From an uncultured Methanosarcinales archaeon (GTDB lineage Archaea; Nanobdellota; Nanobdellia; Woesearchaeales; JAGVZT01), in contig CAYQPU010000021.1 of the NCBI GenBank assembly GCA_964419615.1, positions 1-29,008 on the forward strand: DNA of 29,008 nt, written 5' to 3'. A program made the position numbers and the translations under genes. Below, piece after piece: positions 14,580-22,109 of this stretch; the stretch's first letter is position 1, and each line of letters begins with the position of its first letter. Below the pieces are notes generated by a model, which saw only the letters and a program-made list of their open reading frames with translations, was not told the DNA's origin and made no database searches.

Positions 14580-14641
14580 AAAGCAAAGGAGGAAAAAACT
14601 GTTTAAAATACTTTTGAAAAAAAAAGGTGGGCTCAGAGGGA

Positions 14642-14787
14642 CTTTCAACAACCTTTTACAAAGTTTTAACCAAAGGTAGCACATTTATGTGCTTGGGTGG
14701 TGATAATCTTGCATTTCAAGACATCACCACATGGGACTACAAATCCCATTGTTTTGGTCAAACTTTTACCCTTGGGTAAAAGGTTGA
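14642..14787 (-). other. 146-nt T-loop (59/60) BHB-type intron of tRNA-Lys, multibranched
   Basis: Central helix TTCA/TGAA, bulges AAT and AGT, 11-bp CAACCTTTTAC/GTAAAAGGTTG stem, three internal hairpins. Confidence 0.9.
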
Positions 14788-14804
14788 TTTGAACCCTCGA
14801 CCTA

Positions 14805-14826
14805 TTAACCCAGCTTTTGTTGCTGT
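14805..14826 (-). other. 22-nt BHB intron of tRNA-Lys at 42/43
   Basis: AACC/GGTT central helix, bulges AGA and AAT, CAGC/GCTG inner stem; cutting after the second bulge nucleotide restores CCAGT. Confidence 0.9.
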
Positions 14827-14886
14827 CTGGTTAAGAGCCAGTTGCTCTGCCTAACTAAGCTATGAGCCCATAAAACAATAAATAAA

Positions 14887-14935
14887 GAAAATCAAAAAAT
14901 GATTTTCTAAATTGAAAATACTTCATATTTTCAAT
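14887..14935. repeat. Two adjacent AT-rich palindromes (GAAAATCA/TGATTTTC; ATTGAAAATA/TATTTTCAAT)
   Basis: Perfect 8-bp and 10-bp inverted repeats; the ATTGAAAAT motif recurs at 22869-22993. Confidence 0.7.
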
Positions 14936-14955
14936 AAAAGAGAAAAATAATCTGG

Positions 14956-14970
14956 TTATAAATCTTTTGG
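14956..14970 (-). promoter_or_regulatory. BRE + TATA promoter, probably for tRNA-Lys
   Basis: Minus strand CCAAAAGATTTATAA, 86 nt upstream of the tRNA 5' end. Confidence 0.45.
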
Positions 14971-14974
14971 CTAT

Positions 14975-17830
14975 CTAGCTTGCATAACCCGCTAATGCAG
15001 ACTGATCACCATTAAAAACATTAGCATCAGTCTTGCCATGAGTTTCTGTTGCAATTCCATTAGTTATTCCATAAACAGGTTGACAATCTCCACAAGTCTG
15101 CCAGAAATCCCAGGTGTCCCAAGTATCCGGAATTGTTGGACAATCAACACCCCAGTGTGCAATCCACAATGGATATTCACCAAATTGTTCCTTAGCTGCA
15201 CTAGGGTTAAATCCATTCCAAAAACCAACACTTGTATATATCAAAGGTTTTTTACCGGTAGCAGCTTCAACAGTTTCCAGCCAATCTTTCATATTCCTAA
15301 ACCAATCATCAGTTGAGGCATGTATCATTTGCTGATCAGTTGGATCTATCTCTAAATCCAAAACAGCAGGTAATTCTCCAAAATCTCCTTCCATCATTGA
15401 CAGGAATTTTTGAGCTTGACCAACACCATCAACATAAGGAACAAAAAAGTGATATGCACCTCTATACACTCCCTGTGCTTTTGCTTCTCTCCAATTCCTC
15501 TTAAACTCTGGATCTTCTGTTGTACTATATGTTGCTCTGATAAATGCAAAGCCAACACCATAATCAGGGTCACTTACAACTTCATGCCAACGGATATCTC
15601 CTTTCCACTTTGAAACATCAATACCAGTAGCAGCATCTTGGCCCCCACAAATAGTAGTAGAGCCACCTCCTCCAGCACCCCAACCACTGCCTCCACTTCC
15701 ACCACCAGAGCCTCCACCACTTCCTGAACCTCCAGAGCCTCCACCACCACCTGTACCTCCTGTTGCACAGATACCACTACAACCATCTTGTGGTTCATCA
15801 AACATATGATCTTTAATCAGTTCATAAGCAATATAAAAATCAACTTTTTCTTTTCTAACATCATTATAATCTTGGGACTCAACCAAAAGCCAGCATCTTC
15901 CTTTTCTTTCAACAGAACCATATATCAGTAAAGGAGTTTGACCATCAAAAGCCATATCATCTCTATACTGCATGCAGTTATAGTCCCCATAATAGTCACA
16001 GAACTCTAATGTTCTTGTATCAGATGGTTGACAAGTATAAAAAGTCCTACCATTAAAATTCTCATCAAAATCAATAGGACAAGGAAAGTATTCTTGAGGT
16101 TCTGCATCTCCTTCAGGACAATCAGCACCACCAGATGATTGACTCCTTACTGGGCTTAATGGATTTGGTGGTTTAGGAACAGTAGCTCCACCCGGTACCC
16201 AAACGTTGTAGGTATATTGGTTTGTTTCATATTCAACAGTATACTCTGTGCAAGTTGCTGTCTCCATGTCCCAAGGATTACAATCTGGCTGACCAACGCA
16301 CACCTTTGGAACTTCCATTGTTGCACCAGACTGATCACACAGTAAAAAGGATTCATCAACATTAATACCAAAACCTTTGAATGTGACATCTGCTCTTGCC
16401 TTAAAACAAGCATCTTCTGGTTCTAACCTATTCCTACCAAAAAGATCAAAGTGTTGAGTAGCATCTTTGAAATCTAGTACGTCAATTTTGCACCAATCAT
16501 CACTGTCAGGAGTACAGACAGCTTTAATAACCATGTCTTTTTCAGGTTTCTCTGTTGGACTATCGGTGTCTCTCTTACCTACTTCTGGCAGTCTATCCTC
16601 TTTTGTCCATAAGCAAGAATCACCATTATCATAAAAGGCAATCTTGTTGTCTCTCATCTCTCTTTCAAATTCAAAATTCTCATACCAAAAATAGTAAGTT
16701 GTGCATGTACAATTACCAGAAGGAGGCTCATCTTCACATCCACCTGTACACTCATGACAACCACCACATGAATCTGTCTGTCTTACAACAGGTGTTGGAC
16801 CAACACATACATCTCCATCTCCAACACCACCTTTACCAATACCTGTTGATTTAATGTATAATTCTCCAGGAATCTCAGAAGGAGGTGGCGGAGGAGATTT
16901 GGTCCATCCCTCACAACTTTGACAACCTTCTGTTAATGTCCATTCAGGCAATTGAAGAATTGTATCACTCTCCTCAGTACACCTCAGTACAACACCAAAC
17001 GGAGTAAAGTGTGTTGTCTCAGCCTCAATCACATTCTCATCAACATCAACAACAGATGAATCCAAAGAAACCCACATATCAAGATTCTTGTCATAAAAAC
17101 CAAGCATTAAATCTTCTTCTTTGATTGTTAATGGAATATCTTTTTGATGATAACTCATAATCAATTTAACTGGCTGGGAAAACTGTGCTCCATCAGGAAG
17201 TCCCCTATAAGCAAGCATACCCATCAAAACTCTATTAGACAGTCCCTCAAATTCCCTGTCCAAAAGCTCAATACCAGGTCTATCTCCACCAGTCATTGTG
17301 GTTCCTGGAGGAACAATAATCTGGAATCTATTATCATGAGATGTAATTAATGTCTCATCACCTGCTTTGATAGGTTCATATAACTTTCTTGGAACAACAT
17401 AATTTTGTTCTTTAAATGTAATAGTAGCAGGACTCTTGGTCATCTCAATTGGATATTCTAAATCAACATCAATAGTGACATCATTAATATCAACTTTAAC
17501 GGTAATATCCTCCTCTTCTACTTCAAACCCTTCTTCTCTGAATGCCTCAAAACCTTTGGTACAGGCAACAACATTCTTAGATATATAATCTATTAACCAA
17601 TCAGTACTTATATCCTCATCAATACCATAATAAACCATGGCATCATTTGAGACAAGTTCTAGACAAGAACCCATAAAAAAATTCAAGGCCTCTTGAGTTG
17701 TTTTTGTATCACTAATCTCATGAGTATTTGGCTCACCACCTTTATTTGAAACCATAAACACTGCTGCAAACGCAAGTAACAAAACAATAGCTAAAATCAG
17801 GAAAATACTTGTCTGGGATTTTGAACTCAT
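14975..17830 (-). CDS. Large surface protein: class III (pilin-like) signal, ZU5-like domain, Cys-rich region, Gly/Ser linker, C-terminal GH25 muramidase
   Basis: KSQ + hydrophobic helix; GH25 motifs at about 14975-15625: GIDVSKW, FAFIRAT, RGAYHFF, PAVLDLE (DxE at 15350-15358), PLIYT, LWIAHW, WDFWQ, DANVF. Confidence 0.9.
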   Translation of the reverse strand: MSSKSQTSIFLILAIVLLLAFAAVFMVSNKGGEPNTHEISDTKTTQEALNFFMGSCLELVSNDAMVYYGIDEDISTDWLIDYISKNVVACTKGFEAFREEGFEVEEEDITVKVDINDVTIDVDLEYPIEMTKSPATITFKEQNYVVPRKLYEPIKAGDETLITSHDNRFQIIVPPGTTMTGGDRPGIELLDREFEGLSNRVLMGMLAYRGLPDGAQFSQPVKLIMSYHQKDIPLTIKEEDLMLGFYDKNLDMWVSLDSSVVDVDENVIEAETTHFTPFGVVLRCTEESDTILQLPEWTLTEGCQSCEGWTKSPPPPPSEIPGELYIKSTGIGKGGVGDGDVCVGPTPVVRQTDSCGGCHECTGGCEDEPPSGNCTCTTYYFWYENFEFEREMRDNKIAFYDNGDSCLWTKEDRLPEVGKRDTDSPTEKPEKDMVIKAVCTPDSDDWCKIDVLDFKDATQHFDLFGRNRLEPEDACFKARADVTFKGFGINVDESFLLCDQSGATMEVPKVCVGQPDCNPWDMETATCTEYTVEYETNQYTYNVWVPGGATVPKPPNPLSPVRSQSSGGADCPEGDAEPQEYFPCPIDFDENFNGRTFYTCQPSDTRTLEFCDYYGDYNCMQYRDDMAFDGQTPLLIYGSVERKGRCWLLVESQDYNDVRKEKVDFYIAYELIKDHMFDEPQDGCSGICATGGTGGGGGSGGSGSGGGSGGGSGGSGWGAGGGGSTTICGGQDAATGIDVSKWKGDIRWHEVVSDPDYGVGFAFIRATYSTTEDPEFKRNWREAKAQGVYRGAYHFFVPYVDGVGQAQKFLSMMEGDFGELPAVLDLEIDPTDQQMIHASTDDWFRNMKDWLETVEAATGKKPLIYTSVGFWNGFNPSAAKEQFGEYPLWIAHWGVDCPTIPDTWDTWDFWQTCGDCQPVYGITNGIATETHGKTDANVFNGDQSALAGYAS

Positions 17831-17836
17831 AATAAT

Positions 17837-17875
17837 ACCTCCTTTTATTATTTCAATCTAATAAGGCCTTATAAA
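17837..17875 (-). promoter_or_regulatory. TATA box and strong SD for the GH25 surface-protein gene
   Basis: TTTATAA at 17869-17875 preceded by an A-run; GGAGGT at 17837-17842. Confidence 0.6.
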
Positions 17876-17896
17876 TTTTTCTAAGAATCAATAAGA

Positions 17897-18247
17897 TTAA
17901 ATTTTATTTAACACAACAAAATTGGCAACTTGGGTTCCTGGCCAAGATTCTTCTGCAACTAAATCCTCATTTAATCTATGGGCATATTGTGTTGAGTGGC
18001 CGCTATCAAACATAATTGCTTTTGTGCTTCCAAGTTGCAATAGTAAAGCTGCAGCTTCATATGGAACCACATCATAGCATTTCATAAAATACATTATTTT
18101 CCCATCGCTGGATAAACCTGCAACTGTCTTTGCACCTGTTTTCCATGTTCTCTTATCATTTGGTTTTAACATATCTTGTTGTAGAACCGTTGGTATTTTA
18201 GGTGAGCCTGTTGTGTCATAAATGAGTGTTTTAACCCCAGAGATCAT
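17897..18247 (-). CDS. Phosphodiester glycosidase (NAGPA/DUF2233)-like C-terminal fragment; may be a remnant
   Basis: GSPKI, KTVAGLSSDGK, EAAALLLQLGSTKAIMFDSGHST match the RTAIG...dG / A.ll..lG...AinLDGGGSt pattern; only the C-terminal half; no signal peptide. Confidence 0.6.
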   Translation of the reverse strand: MISGVKTLIYDTTGSPKIPTVLQQDMLKPNDKRTWKTGAKTVAGLSSDGKIMYFMKCYDVVPYEAAALLLQLGSTKAIMFDSGHSTQYAHRLNEDLVAEESWPGTQVANFVVLNKI

Positions 18248-19265
18248 ATGATTCAACATAAGCAACTGTTTGTTGAGTTGCACTGTTTGCATCTGCTAAC
18301 CAGTCTTCCCATTCCTGATCTCTATCTAAATGTTCCCAATAGTTTTCATAAACATAATCAACTTGTGCAGTATTCTTCCAATTAATCCTTGATCTATCTT
18401 GTTCTTTCAATGATTTGAGCATTAAAACTCCTTTCTCATCATACTGGCTAAAGTCTCCAATAGGAATATTCTCAGGATAACCCTCTAAACCAATGTCACG
18501 ATAATAAAGCACAGTTCCAAAGACAGTCTCTGCCATATTAACCTCTTTTTCAGCATAGTAGTTTGCCAGTGCAATACATATCCCTTCATTAGATCCACTA
18601 ATGCCCGATAAATCTCCACTTCCATGTTCTTCATTAAACCCATGGCATGTTTCATGCACAATAACTTCTGTGTTAACATTAGCATAATCATAAATACTTA
18701 CAATAGGATGAGCATAATAAGTTCCTTCTCCTAGTGAACCATACTCAACATAAGTCAATGTTTCAATCATAAAATCGATCCTGCCTGAACTATACATATC
18801 CTCCAGATGCTCGAGCAAAGCCTCTTTATTAACCACATCAGATCTTATATTAACAAGTGAACTAATCAAAGAATCAACCTGATCTCTTTCTCGGATCAGA
18901 TCCATAAACTCTTCTGCCTCTTCAACAGAAAGTGATGTAAGAACAGGTTCCATTATTTCTTGATTTTGCTCAATATCTTCAGAATCCAGAATATTATTCA
19001 TCTCTAAAACATTAAGTGCATCCTGAACATTCTCACTAAATGTAATTCCATCTTTTTTATTCTCACCAATCCCAGTACAGTCAAAACTCCCATCAGTTTG
19101 TTCTTCACAATTATCATTGTGACAGTCTGTATCCAATTCCCAGAATGTTGTATCTAGTCCCGATGATTTCCTACAAACCAATATATCACCCGAAGCTGAA
19201 CATGATTGTTCATTAAGAATATCACATGGATCATTGAGATCAGGCTTATCTGAACCACTACCTCC
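18231..19265 (-). CDS. In-frame continuation of the 19266-21299 ORF: Gly/Ser linker, Cys-rich module, HExxH zinc-peptidase-like domain
   Basis: Frame open from 19265 (GGSGSDKPDLNDPC...) to 18231; HETCH at 18642-18656 with a downstream NEG (gluzincin-like third ligand). Confidence 0.7.
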   Translation of the reverse strand, partial: GGSGSDKPDLNDPCDILNEQSCSASGDILVCRKSSGLDTTFWELDTDCHNDNCEEQTDGSFDCTGIGENKKDGITFSENVQDALNVLEMNNILDSEDIEQNQEIMEPVLTSLSVEEAEEFMDLIRERDQVDSLISSLVNIRSDVVNKEALLEHLEDMYSSGRIDFMIETLTYVEYGSLGEGTYYAHPIVSIYDYANVNTEVIVHETCHGFNEEHGSGDLSGISGSNEGICIALANYYAEKEVNMAETVFGTVLYYRDIGLEGYPENIPIGDFSQYDEKGVLMLKSLKEQDRSRINWKNTAQVDYVYENYWEHLDRDQEWEDWLADANSATQQTVAYVESYDLWG

Positions 19266-21299
19266 TCAATCTCCACCTCCTCCTAAAGCAATATCAACAT
19301 CCTCTTTTTTAACCCAAATGTCTAGATTCCATTGGCGCCCATTATGATTGATCAAATGTTGTGCTTCGAGCAACAACCAGCAAACATCATCCACCATAGC
19401 AGAACCAAAAATCAAAAGTTCTGTACTCTCATCATAAGATACAAAACTTAATTGATCCATTTCTGGATAATCACCGTACATATCTGCAAACTCATCTCTG
19501 CTCCTTGTTTCAAATGAATTACTTGCTGTAAAAGTTAGTCCTTTATAATCCTCTTCGTATTCTTCACAAGGAGTACTGTATGTTGGGTGAACAAAAGTGG
19601 TCACAGCAATTCTATCTTTCATATTCTTTGTTGTACCATCAGTAATACCTGTTCCTTCTCTATACTCCCATTTACATACATTTTGATAGCACTTACAATC
19701 AGCCATCTTCACCTGTCTTGGAGTACCTCCAAAAAATGGCATCTGCTTTGACTCACCATCATTTTCACACACATAATAAGAACCTTCTTTTTGAATTCCA
19801 AACCCACTATATTGGACAGTTGATCCTTGTTTTAAAAGTGCATCTTCTCCATCATTTGTTGCCTCTAATTTGAAAGTTAAAACATTAGCCTCTAATTTTT
19901 CATCTAAAATCAAACAAGTGTCATCTTCTCCAGACCAACACCTAGATATAAGCAAAATATCTGCAGTAATATCATCTGGATCAGTGTTAGTATTAGTTTC
20001 AGAATCGATCTTTTCTATTTGTACACTATCCTCAGTGTTTTCATCCCAAATACAAGAACCACCCAAACCTTCAAAAGTTATTTCAATAGCTCTATCAATT
20101 TTAAATTCATTAGGTTCATAATAATAATAATAAAATGAATCACACTTACAAGCAGGAATTCCTCCGCCCTTAGGTTCTGGACATTGTCCACCAACTTCTC
20201 CAGAACACTCTCCCTTACAATCAGAACAATCTACAACATCATATTTTATTTGAATAGGTCCTTTACAGGTATCTATCCTATCTCCAATACCATTACCTTG
20301 AGTAACTTCCACTCCCTCAATAAACAACTTCTCTCCACCACCACCTGGAACAGACCCATAAGCCCAACCCTCATCAGGCTCACAATCCTCTTTGATAGCC
20401 AGAACAATTGAATTCTCAGCTATGTCCTCTAATTCAGTACATTTAATAACAATTGCATATTTAGTGAAATGGTATGTTTCAGCCACAAGCTTGTTTTCTA
20501 CAACATCAACTTGGGTTGGAATTGCAAGCCAAACACCAGTAGGTTCATCATAATAAGCAATTCGTAAATCTTCTTCTTTCACAGTGAAAGGTACTTCTGA
20601 ATCATTATAAAGCATAGTTAACTCAACTGGTTTTGAGAATTTGGCACCATTAGGATAAGCATCAAACGCAAGCATATTCATTACAACGTTGTTCTTAAAT
20701 CCATAATCTTCCCTGTCAAGAATTTTAAAACCAACTTCTTGTTTGTTATTATTAAGAATTCTAGCCCCAGGAGGAATTATCATTTGAAATTCCCTATGTG
20801 GTGATGAGAGAATAGTCTCTTTGTTTTCTTCAATCTCAGTCCACTTAATTCTATGAAGAATAAAGTTTTGATTTTTAAATTTAATAATTGTGTCGGCCTT
20901 AACCATTGTTATTGGATATTCTAACTCCACAGTTAATGTTTTACCTGTGATTTCAACATCAACAACAATATCCTCTTTTGTAATCACAAATCCTATTTCC
21001 TCGAACATTTTCAAATTGTCAGTACACCCTGGCAAGTTAGTCTTTATCTGCTCTTCAATAAAATCATTGCTAACACCAGAAAGAATCCCATAATCATGGA
21101 CAGCTTGGTTAGTAGTATCTTCCAAACAAGATCTTATTAGAAAATTGAGTGAATCTTGATTTCCTTTAAGATTGATACTTCCTTCAACATCAGGTTTAAC
21201 TAGAACTGATTCTTTACTAAACAAAAATAGACTGATACCTGCTAAAAGAACAATTGCAATAATGAGAAAAACCGCTATCTGACCTCTTTTTTTGAACAT
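19266..21299 (-). CDS. Large surface protein, paralogue of 14975-17830 (KRGQ class III signal, ZU5-like, Cys-rich), ending at an in-frame TGA inside a Gly linker
   Basis: Colinear similarity with the GH25 carrier (SCLE, LEYPI, PPG, LDRE, KEEDL, HFT, YGDY, LLI.GS, CWLL); ends ALGGGGD-TGA. Confidence 0.85.
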   Translation of the reverse strand: MFKKRGQIAVFLIIAIVLLAGISLFLFSKESVLVKPDVEGSINLKGNQDSLNFLIRSCLEDTTNQAVHDYGILSGVSNDFIEEQIKTNLPGCTDNLKMFEEIGFVITKEDIVVDVEITGKTLTVELEYPITMVKADTIIKFKNQNFILHRIKWTEIEENKETILSSPHREFQMIIPPGARILNNNKQEVGFKILDREDYGFKNNVVMNMLAFDAYPNGAKFSKPVELTMLYNDSEVPFTVKEEDLRIAYYDEPTGVWLAIPTQVDVVENKLVAETYHFTKYAIVIKCTELEDIAENSIVLAIKEDCEPDEGWAYGSVPGGGGEKLFIEGVEVTQGNGIGDRIDTCKGPIQIKYDVVDCSDCKGECSGEVGGQCPEPKGGGIPACKCDSFYYYYYEPNEFKIDRAIEITFEGLGGSCIWDENTEDSVQIEKIDSETNTNTDPDDITADILLISRCWSGEDDTCLILDEKLEANVLTFKLEATNDGEDALLKQGSTVQYSGFGIQKEGSYYVCENDGESKQMPFFGGTPRQVKMADCKCYQNVCKWEYREGTGITDGTTKNMKDRIAVTTFVHPTYSTPCEEYEEDYKGLTFTASNSFETRSRDEFADMYGDYPEMDQLSFVSYDESTELLIFGSAMVDDVCWLLLEAQHLINHNGRQWNLDIWVKKEDVDIALGGGGD

Positions 21300-21319
21300 A
21301 TTTTGTTTTTATATTATCA

Positions 21320-21327
21320 TATATAAA
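21320..21327 (-). promoter_or_regulatory. TATA box for the 21299 gene (likely leaderless mRNA)
   Basis: TTTATATA about 21 nt upstream of the ATG. Confidence 0.5.
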
Positions 21328-21364
21328 AAGTTTATGGAAAAGAGTAAAAAAGCGGGAGGAGGGA

Positions 21365-21451
21365 CTTTCAAGACTATTTTCCAAAGCGAATTCGACAAAG
21401 TCGAAGACGCCATTTTTGATCGAACTTTTCAGCGAAGCGGAAAAAGGTCGA
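21365..21451 (-). other. 87-nt T-loop (59/60) intron of tRNA-Cys
   Basis: TTCA/TGAA helix with AAT and AGT bulges; contains the CTTTT..AAAAGTTCGATCAAAA module. Confidence 0.88.
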
Positions 21452-21473
21452 TTTGAACCCTCGCATCGTCGGG

Positions 21474-21506
21474 ATCTGCATATCATAGCCGAAGCTCAAT
21501 ATCCCG
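21474..21506 (-). other. 33-nt anticodon-loop (37/38) intron of tRNA-Cys
   Basis: CTGC/GCAG central helix, bulges AAC and ATC, internal AGC-TTCG-GCT hairpin. Confidence 0.88.
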
Positions 21507-21564
21507 TTGCAGCCGACTGCCTTAGCCGGACTTGGCCACTCCCGCAATAATGGACCCGAAGGGA

Positions 21565-21682
21565 CTTTCGACATCCTTTCCACAGCTTGTACCATGGCTA
21601 TCTCGTTACATAAAGGCCATGTTATGGGACTTTATGTCCCATTACTTTTGGTCAAGCTTTTGCCCGAAGGGGAAAAGATTGA
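21565..21682 (-). other. 118-nt T-loop (59/60) intron of tRNA-Arg
   Basis: TTCG/CGAA central helix (compensatory relative to TTCA/TGAA in Lys and Cys), AAT and AGT bulges. Confidence 0.9.
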
Positions 21683-21704
21683 TTCGAACCCTTGATCTAC
21701 AGCT

Positions 21705-21749
21705 GTCTGAAATCGCGGATTTCCGAGCAAATCTCAGTTCCCTCGATAT
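21705..21749 (-). other. 45-nt anticodon-loop (37/38) intron of tRNA-Arg, relaxed motif
   Basis: Removal restores ACAGC-CTTCTAA-GCTGT; central helix poorly paired; junction ambiguous by one A. Confidence 0.8.
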
Positions 21750-21768
21750 TAGAAGGCTGTCGCCTTAT

Positions 21769-21885
21769 ATGCCCGAACAATTAATATCCTCAATCATCAC
21801 GTATCGTGGCAATCACGTTTTCATAAAGGCCACGCCAAGGGGCTTTAGCCCCTTATGTTTTAATCGAACTTTTCTTAAAAGTTCG
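21769..21885 (-). other. 117-nt D-loop (19/20) intron of tRNA-Arg
   Basis: BHB with GTCT/GGGC helix, bulges GGC and ATA, GAAC/GTTC stem; cleavage restores AGTCTGGATAAGGC. Confidence 0.88.
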
Positions 21886-21929
21886 CCAGACTAGGCTACG
21901 GGTCCATACTCAATAGGGCTTTTAAGCAA

Positions 21930-21954: not shown

Positions 21955-22046
21955 GAAAACACCACCTTGGCGCGATGCAGCTAAACCAGAAAGGTTTAGC
22001 GAAATAGGACTGGCAAGGCCGTCGCTGCCAGGGAGGGGGTGTTTTC
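21955..22046. ncRNA. Unidentified GC-rich structured element (candidate ncRNA)
   Basis: Terminal 9-bp GAAAACACC/GGTGTTTTC stem, long inner stem, and 8-bp GCTAAACC/GGTTTAGC hairpin in an AT-rich genome. Confidence 0.45.
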
Positions 22047-22109
22047 CATGAAACAACACTTATGATCATCCTTTTTATCAAAACCTTTAAAAGAAAACAT
22101 ATCTCACAC

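Follow-up and report, generated by a model that had tools for sequence, protein, structure and literature searches.

The tRNA genes of the window

We have analyzed a 29,008-nucleotide (nt) stretch of DNA (contig CAYQPU010000021.1, hereafter the window) from the 1.48-Mb, 33% G+C genome of a member of the Woesearchaeota, a DPANN archaeon. This genome, called G000 here, is 99% complete. The subject of the analysis is a set of inserts, read here as introns, in the T-loops of three tRNA genes of the window, for lysine, cysteine and arginine, and in the D-loop of the last. Neither ARAGORN nor Rfam found a tRNA in the raw window. The genes were detected by reading the minus strand and by scanning the genome for paired acceptor stem and T-stem sequences, with an insert allowed in the T-loop. 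When the inserts bounded by bulge-helix-bulge (BHB) motifs are cut out in silico, ARAGORN yields tRNAs of 74 nt for Lys(CTT), 75 nt for Cys(GCA) and 75 nt for Arg(TCT), and the canonical cloverleaf is regained in all three. ARAGORN was run on exhaustive BHB-spliced variants and relied on for these three genes only; it was too permissive for use across the genome, so the census of T-loop introns given below comes from the stem-pairing scan. The features are listed in Table 1.

Table 1. Introns, host genes and related elements in the window (plain coordinates), elsewhere in G000 and in the sister genome G001
Feature	Location	Strand	Basis and remarks
tRNA-Lys(CTT) gene	14628..14869	-	acceptor/T-stem scan; ARAGORN after removal of two BHB inserts; 168 of ~241 nt intron
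T-loop 59/60 intron, tRNA-Lys	14642..14787	-	146 nt; type A plus an extra fourth hairpin
5' hairpin and A-tract module, Lys T-loop intron	14752..14788	-	regular expression and alignment A1
Type A core, Lys T-loop intron	14698..14767	-	second module strand, linker, hairpins 2 and 3; covariance model R1, 75.6 bits
Intron at 42/43, tRNA-Lys	14805..14826	-	22 nt; perfect 3-4-3 BHB, score 10 of 10
tRNA-Cys(GCA) gene	21351..21545	-	acceptor/T-stem scan; ARAGORN after splicing
T-loop 59/60 intron, tRNA-Cys	21365..21451	-	87 nt; type B cargo
Anticodon-loop intron, tRNA-Cys	21474..21506	-	33 nt; ARAGORN and BHB scan
tRNA-Arg(TCT) gene	21551..21905	-	acceptor/T-stem scan; ARAGORN after splicing; ~280 of 354 nt intron
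T-loop 59/60 intron, tRNA-Arg	21565..21682	-	118 nt; type A; central helix TTCG/CGAA; R1 match 21592-21661, 75.5 bits
Anticodon-loop intron, tRNA-Arg	21705..21749	-	~45 nt; ARAGORN requires removal of 12 nt and 33 nt; exact BHB register not fixed
D-loop intron (after G19), tRNA-Arg	21769..21885	-	117 nt; type A; BHB scan; R1 match 21804-21873, 81.4 bits
16S rRNA intron of the module family	G000:C1:7681-7829 (L037)		~150 nt; inside a conserved block, between GGATTAGAT and ACCC
RNase P RNA gene with element	G000:C3:47785-47905 (L034)	-	Rfam, 94.9 bits
Module with type D cargo	G000:C48:4760-4865 (L036)		~105 nt; between rpl23 stop and rpl2 start, antisense to the genes
Tandem array	G000:C40:9224-9459 (L035)		two to three units of ~118 nt, between two convergent open reading frames
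IS200/IS605-type Y1 transposase genes (two)	G000:C57:973-1428 and end of C2		one cut by contig end
Type E T-loop intron family of G001	e.g. G001 C10:18299, C13:1131, C47:66487 (loci L197-L293)		repeated TTGGCTGTTAGCC-like units, 62-91 nt

An earlier note on this DNA, made from its letters, had placed introns of 146, 87 and 118 nt at position 59/60 of the three T-loops and a related intron of 117 nt in the D-loop of tRNA-Arg. Our coordinates for the former agree with it, and both the position of the latter and its kinship (R1 match of 81.4 bits) are confirmed. One further intron per gene had been overlooked, of 22 nt in tRNA-Lys, 33 nt in tRNA-Cys and about 45 nt in tRNA-Arg. The intron share of the gene length is about 70% for Lys, 62% for Cys and 79% for Arg. 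A 3-4-3 BHB is present in the three T-loop introns and in the short Lys intron at 42/43, whose removal gives a perfect anticodon stem; in the BHB of the Arg D-loop intron, two of the pairs in the 4-bp helix are G-U. The minimum-free-energy fold of the Lys T-loop intron runs from the T-stem through a 3-nt bulge, a TTCA/TGAA helix and a second bulge to a closing helix. Among related genomes, the 42/43 intron is kept in G001 and G004 and missing from G003, and the sequence of the Arg anticodon-loop intron is conserved in G001.

That standard tRNA finders are blank at the three loci is what one would see if these were unspliced pseudogenes or the product of chimeric contigs, and the earlier note had itself raised the objection that intact, intron-less copies might lie elsewhere. 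Such an explanation is extremely improbable. The anticodon-arm and exon strings of the three genes occur once each in the genome. The syntenic locus of the sister genome G001, an independent metagenome-assembled genome (MAG) from another site, has exons that are 98-100% identical next to introns that have diverged, and in G000 the BHB junctions are intact and the assembly is nearly complete.

Structure of the introns

Alignment of 27 introns reveals a modular plan, consisting of a hairpin, an A-tract linker, a cargo and a 3' strand. The module hairpin begins one or two bases past the 5' cut. It has a variable base of 5 bp, a C-G pair and a U4-5/A4-5 stem (CUUUU/AAAAG), and its loop either measures 3 nt or is extended by GC-rich sequence, capped in many copies by a UUCG-type tetraloop. 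There are at least four types of cargo. Type A consists of two hairpins, with a third in the longest copies, and is found in the Lys T-loop, Arg T-loop and Arg D-loop introns and at 16 other places in tRNA genes; type B is one composite hairpin, found in the Cys T-loop intron and four others; types C and D are less common. The 3' strand is able to pair with the linker and the first hairpin strand, and is followed in T-loop copies by YGAAAG. An optional 48-nt double hairpin is inserted at a constant point inside the first hairpin. We rejected the idea that it is a nested intron, as its borders lack a consistent BHB.

The 5' module common to all four long introns of the window, which the earlier note had described, stands up to statistical scrutiny. 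The pattern CTTTT-N(3-16)-AAAAGYTYGAYCAAAA occurs 22 times in G000 and 0 times when read backwards; a relative, G006 (an unpublished genome), has a single match. Local alignments scored against 500 dinucleotide shuffles give z = 14.2 for the Lys and Arg T-loop introns, 12.5 for the two Arg introns, 3.3-6.1 for pairs that include the Cys intron and only 2.3 for the Lys T-loop and Arg D-loop introns. Despite this last value, both members of the weakest pair match covariance model R1 at 75-81 bits. The similarity is more than chance, contrary to the possibility, also raised in that note, that the module does not exceed a shuffled background.

MAFFT misaligned the variable hairpin loop in the first alignment (A1), so the second alignment (A2) and model R1, which was built from it, start at the second hairpin strand. 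In the type A core (A2, 19 copies) 99.2% of the cells are paired and 10 of 13 base pairs show compensatory changes on both sides. This level of pairing was reached by none of 500 shuffles, and sliding the partner strand reduces it to 25-42%. The GGGA...TCCC hairpin previously noticed in the Lys and Arg introns is helix 1 of this covarying core. The central helix of the BHB likewise tracks the T-loop of the host, as had been proposed: where the T-loop has TTCG the intron supplies CGAA in five cases and TGAA in three, and where it has TTCA, CGAA is found in 0 of 23 (Fisher p = 3e-4). When the T-arm is folded together with the intron, the minimum-free-energy structure has the canonical T-stem, 3-nt bulge and 4-5-bp helix for 13 of 20 long introns and the local module hairpin for a few. 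A crude count of pairs does not discriminate between the local hairpin and the closing helix.

Other readings of the module were considered. A K-turn and a promoter were judged by eye and dropped because the GC-rich, UUCG-type loops of many copies favour an RNA hairpin. As to a triple helix, the length of the third A-tract is correlated with that of the U-run in a mixed set (rho 0.70); in the set restricted to archaea the A-tract tracks the U-run in 55 of 94 cases and the true pairing partner does so in 57 of 94. This reading was not adopted. No Rfam family, group I and II introns and ribozymes included, matches the window at the gathering score, and the 14 intron-bearing loci give no Rfam match at E up to 1 besides tRNA and RNase P. 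A box C/D guide RNA was rejected, as a C box (RUGAUGA) and a D box (CUGA) at guide spacing occur in 0 of the 27 introns.

Distribution and turnover in tRNA genes

The stem-pairing scan finds about 42 tRNA genes in G000, only about 10 of which are detectable by Rfam. T-loop introns at 59/60 are present in 31 of them, 11 short ones of 14-43 nt and 20 long ones of 82-191 nt. Every one of the 20 long introns opens with the shared module, which also opens four D-loop and three anticodon-loop introns. A covariance-model search inside and outside tRNA genes and in relatives, recommended in the earlier note, was carried out with R1. It finds 20 places in G000, 19 of them in the T-, D- and anticodon loops of tRNA genes, and 9 in G001. 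Among 151 sampled genomes of the order, 14 have type A matches, in numbers from 1 to 21; the 17 matches in an unrelated family of the order represent a second burst of type A.

G001, a congener of G000, was compared over the whole genome, and tRNA genes were paired by exon keys. In 28 orthologous pairs (keys at least 95% identical) the T-loop is filled in both genomes in 22, in neither in 4 and only in G000 in 2, and these last two sites are clean, without duplication. At the 22 shared sites the exons are 95-100% identical, while identity between the introns is 0.22-0.66, with Cys alone at 0.80, and their lengths differ by up to four-fold. Several of the G001 sites carry a family unrelated to the occupant in G000. 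This family, type E, is present in at least six tRNAs of G001 and has zero copies in G000.

The introns are related most closely to others in the same genome: this holds for 20 of 22 introns of G000, where the nearest relative lies within another tRNA gene, and for 19 of 22 of G001. Each of the four window introns is nearer to a paralog in another tRNA than to its G001 ortholog. The Cys T-loop intron, for example, shares 92% identity with the one in the T-loop of a different tRNA (contig C32) and 80% with its ortholog, with compensatory changes present, and the best relative of the Arg D-loop intron is the T-loop intron of a Trp-like tRNA. Empty and filled sites, a comparison that the earlier note had called for, are found as well. 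In place of the 117-nt Arg D-loop intron of G000, G001 has a mini-hairpin of 26 nt and G004 a 40-nt module without cargo, and the site is empty in G002, G003 and G007; the T-loop sites of the window genes are long, short or empty across the family; and the two clean T-loop sites add cases of presence and absence. Nested insertions are seen among the copies.

We consider it likely that these are genuine BHB introns of one modular, structured, multi-copy family that is actively copied between RNA genes in this lineage of Woesearchaeota, and our best reading of the family is that it is a variant form of the intron transposition known from Thermoproteales. The suggestion that a non-coding, palindromic mobile element resides in tRNA genes is well supported by the occupation of many tRNAs and three loop positions, by paralogs that are nearer than orthologs, by sites that are filled, empty or replaced, by the nested insertions and by the copies outside tRNA genes described below.

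Part of the same evidence would fit concerted evolution without any transposition, in which old, fixed introns are homogenised by ectopic gene conversion through the GGTTCRAA and YGAAAG junctions and the T-stem. The T-loop is filled in both genomes in most pairs, with contents that differ, similarity is greater within than between genomes, and type E has swept the T-loops of G001. We nevertheless regard this as a rather unlikely account of the whole, because kin copies occupy three loop positions with different junctions (the Arg D-loop intron and its T-loop relative being one instance), because there are copies in 16S rRNA, RNase P and spacers, and because sites have been gained and lost across the family, clean empty ones included.

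Copies outside tRNA genes

Four further loci of G000 carry members of the family (Table 1). The 16S rRNA intron lies in a perfect BHB, according to our own reading of the junction bases, and an intron at the same site in G001 has a covarying hairpin. The 23S gene of G000 exceeds the length of the Rfam model by about 670 nt. In the RNase P RNA gene the P3 arm consists entirely of a 136-nt palindromic double element, between P2 (CTCAAC/GTTGAG) and the GAGGAAAGUCC strand; at the same site G099 has a single copy. The P3 element, having no evident BHB, may remain in the mature RNA. The copy between rpl23 and rpl2 is not found in G001-G004 and is flanked by an imperfect direct repeat of 10-11 nt that includes the rpl2 start codon. 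Each unit of the tandem array is composed of a 32-nt repeat, the hairpin module and a small cargo. In the tRNA, 16S and RNase P genes the copies found by pattern scan are always oriented with the 5' module in the direction of the host gene, and the scan finds no antisense module inside any tRNA gene.

Such copies bear on another explanation, according to which the dyad-symmetric hairpin is a non-autonomous mini-transposon acting as DNA, comparable to the introners of eukaryotes. It would insert anywhere, at times with duplication of its target, and survive where it is harmless, as in the loop of a mini-intron, a peripheral helix like P3 or a spacer, the long introns being old mini-introns with a passenger. 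We think this possible, though on balance unlikely. The rpl23-rpl2 copy, which is antisense, confined to G000 and bordered by a direct repeat, has the appearance of an insertion of this kind, and so has a copy in the genome G067 that stands beside a tRNA gene whose 5' end is duplicated over 15 nt; these repeats are, however, imperfect and variable in length, and the two clean filled and empty T-loop sites have none. Random insertion predicts that about half of the copies should be inverted, but those found by pattern scan in tRNA genes are all co-oriented with the host, and the first hairpin strand always begins at the splice site. The full palindromic double element in P3, the fixed point at which the 48-nt double hairpin enters the module and the graded occupants of the Arg D-loop site (mini-hairpin in G001, module alone in G004, module and cargo in G000) are what a mini-transposon would leave, and the second hairpin strand and the intron 3' strand resemble a duplicated target; yet no constant target was found in the insertion contexts of the module copies.

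The presence of a gene for a Y1 transposase of the IS200/IS605 type in the genome speaks for this explanation. A link to it was rejected because the hairpins at the ends of the C57 element are unlike the module. The leader of the second Y1 copy, at the end of C2, has a hairpin (AAACTTTT...AAAAGTTT) that is vaguely module-like. Membership among miniature inverted-repeat transposable elements or derivatives of IS200/IS605 may or may not apply: dyad symmetry and some flanking repeats are seen in the family, as are clean sites that lack duplication, and the resident Y1 element has hairpins of a different kind.

Beyond G000 and its relatives, an exact-pattern scan of species-representative genomes found the same hairpin and A-tract in tRNA introns, mostly of the anticodon loop, in MAGs labelled Micrarchaeota, Woesearchaeota, Nanoarchaeota, Parvarchaeota, Iainarchaeum and Altiarchaeota. 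The scan of the whole collection is only moderately specific, with about 30 chance matches expected by our estimate. Its matches also include tandem arrays in Methanosarcina and repeats of some Clostridia, which may or may not be kin. In Methanosarcina sp. MSH10X1 (locus L126) there is an array with a period of 83 nt, and its units, like those of Methanosarcina sp. UBA402 (L061), open with a hairpin and A-tract nearly identical to the DPANN module; the L061 arrays adjoin iteron-like repeats. The G067 copy mentioned above (L188, C6:51500-51850) is a type A-like element in antisense orientation just outside the tRNA gene, with the 15-nt duplicated tRNA 5' end as its border. It terminates in a conserved hairpin with the loop AGCGUAAC, which is also found in G062, G117 and G126 and not in G000.

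Immediately upstream of tRNA-Arg in the window, an AT-rich spacer contains a GC-rich segment, about 95 nt long, whose ends are complementary to each other (21960-22060, minus strand). It gives no Rfam match at E up to 1. A similar start is seen ahead of the tRNA-Arg gene of G001, and the segment may be an unannotated small RNA.

Splicing, copying and possible function

The enzymes expected for BHB splicing are each encoded once in G000. The EndA gene (tRNA_int_endo, 101 bits), on contig C3, is an open reading frame of 219 amino acids with a lysine-rich N-terminal extension, and to judge from its length and single copy the enzyme is probably alpha4-like; the RtcB gene scores 538 bits. In DPANN, alpha4-type EndAs with an extra loop accompany more disrupted tRNA genes, and incomplete tRNA sets have been taken to point to unrecognised disrupted genes that call for manual curation (PMC5829648). 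G000 fits this picture. Across 40 relatives of the order the number of tRNAs detectable by Rfam ranges from 5 to 41, with 12 in the complete, single-contig genome G023, which indicates that hidden tRNAs are common; heavy disruption of tRNA genes seems to be widespread in the order, with or without the module.

Within a pre-tRNA, the terminal bases of the intron would pair with the TTCRA of the T-loop or the GUCYGG of the D-loop, so that the BHB would be composed of an exon half and an intron half, and with a closing helix of the intron's own any tRNA could serve as host. The earlier note had supposed that the intron brings its own half of the BHB, and its sequence does include a strand that complements the conserved bases of the T-loop or the D-loop. 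Because these loop sequences are near-universal, one intron would fit any tRNA, which would make the two loops hot spots; anticodon-loop copies are rarer since there the central helix must include the anticodon. The single alpha4-like EndA would then cut, RtcB would rejoin the exons and the insert would be erased from the RNA, the intron probably leaving as a circle by analogy with Sulfolobus (PMC3326292). As to the copying step, our guess is DNA-level copying, or gene conversion via the conserved junctions, together with separate insertion and deletion of the hairpin module. Gene conversion via shared junctions can account for replacement at filled T-loop sites; it leaves unexplained those copies that sit at different positions or in different genes. 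Retention of the covarying hairpins may be due to their compact, self-contained fold, which spares the folding of the BHB and the tRNA, or to a need for them in copying.

These hairpins also allow a different view, in which the cargo works for the host as a small RNA that tRNA splicing sets free, be it a guide, a sponge for proteins or a stable circular regulator; the box C/D RNA of the tRNA-Trp intron is delivered in this way. Compensatory covariation is strong in two helices, the linkers are conserved and the module sequence recurs in tRNA introns of several DPANN phyla and of Altiarchaeota. The other option put forward in the earlier note, a conserved RNA released as a circle, is nonetheless improbable if a host function is meant, since orthologous sites of sister genomes hold unrelated cargo or none, there are at least four cargo types, and copy number drops from 20 places in G000 to 9 in G001 and to none in most of the order; boxes C and D and matches to Rfam are lacking too, as described above. 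For the introns as actively copied elements there is no need to assume a host function of the excised RNA.

Several points weigh against the reading that we prefer. In the predicted folds the first module strand can pair either within the local hairpin or with the 3' end of the intron, and the two pairings exclude each other. In 22 of 28 pairs the T-loop is filled in G000 as well as in G001, so that a large part of the turnover could consist in the replacement of content and not in the colonisation of new sites. The copies in the spacer, in the tandem array and in RNase P P3 lie outside spliced contexts, so that the module is not only an intron. The anatomy of the introns, their covariation, the distribution of copies and the turnover between sisters are observed; splicing in vivo, circular release and the mode of copying are steps that we infer. 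The copying step, finally, is affected by the finding that no RVT_1 (reverse transcriptase) domain is present in G000, which weakens an RNA-mediated route without eliminating it.

The family has spread through most tRNA genes of G000 and keeps them out of the reach of standard tRNA finders, and this would explain why complete DPANN genomes seem to be short of tRNAs. A covariance model of module plus cargo would improve the annotation of tRNAs in DPANN. The family also offers recent copies, filled and empty sites in sister genomes, nested insertions and copies that are not introns as material for a study of how introns arrive, and it suggests a rule for hot spots, namely that loops of universal sequence (T-loop and D-loop) can host one intron in any tRNA.

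Comparison with known systems

No account of T-loop intron families in DPANN was found in the literature library that was searched. The closest parallel is provided by the transposed BHB introns in tRNA genes of Thermoproteales (Sugahara 2008; Fujishima 2010, as summarised in PMC4090602 and PMC5829648). Like these, the introns described here occur several to a gene, use the 59/60 site, would be removed by EndA at a BHB and have relatives in different tRNAs and positions. They differ in having a DPANN host with a probably alpha4-like EndA, where Thermoproteales have an (alpha-beta)2 enzyme; in their modular hairpin and A-tract with a covarying cargo; in the dominance of the T-loop; and in the presence of the module in 16S rRNA, RNase P P3 and intergenic DNA. 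Published archaeal tRNA introns measure 11-129 nt with a median of 12-25 (PMC4090602), and several of ours exceed this range, at up to 191 nt. Published work leaves open by what route archaeal introns reach new sites (PMC4090602, PMC5829648, 10.64898/2026.10.13.758758); in the last of these sources, a 2026 preprint on tRNA introns of Asgard archaea, shared families of this kind are reported to be nearly absent and no route was found.

The tRNA-Trp intron that carries a box C/D guide RNA (Omer 2000; Clouet d'Orval 2001; Singh 2004, as cited in PMC4090602) is likewise long and structured, with selection acting on its RNA. The introns of G000 have no C and D boxes, many hosts and positions and a cargo that is not conserved between sisters. 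Archaeal rRNA and tRNA introns are also known to form stable circles (Danan 2012, PMC3326292). Common to those and to our family are excision at a BHB and an intron of 16S rRNA in a perfect BHB, although a circle is only expected here; our introns contain no open reading frame for a homing endonuclease, and the 16S intron belongs to a family shared with tRNAs.

Among DNA elements, the repetitive extragenic palindromes (REP) of bacteria and the bacterial interspersed mosaic elements (BIME) that they form are associated with RAYT transposases of the Y1 type. The module resembles them as a short conserved hairpin that may stand alone, be paired in inverted orientation or form arrays between convergent genes, in a genome with a Y1 gene; it differs in that most copies are introns in RNA genes and that the ends of the resident IS200-like element are unlike it.

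The introners of algae and fungi are reported by Huff et al. (2016) to be DNA transposons that create spliceosomal introns. The splicing machinery is a different one here, target duplications are inconsistent and there is no linked transposase. The likeness is that of a non-coding, multi-copy element that is neutralised by host splicing, carries part of its own splice signal and expands in bursts within lineages. It leads to a bolder proposal, which we put forward tentatively and think rather unlikely: that the module is the cis signal of an unrecognised, introner-like class of non-autonomous mobile elements in DPANN and other archaea, which would enter spacers and the loops of RNA genes as DNA. 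Such an element would bring both halves of a BHB, or borrow them from the conserved T-loop or D-loop, and would be erased from the RNA by host splicing. If this were true, the class would be the long-sought source of new archaeal introns.

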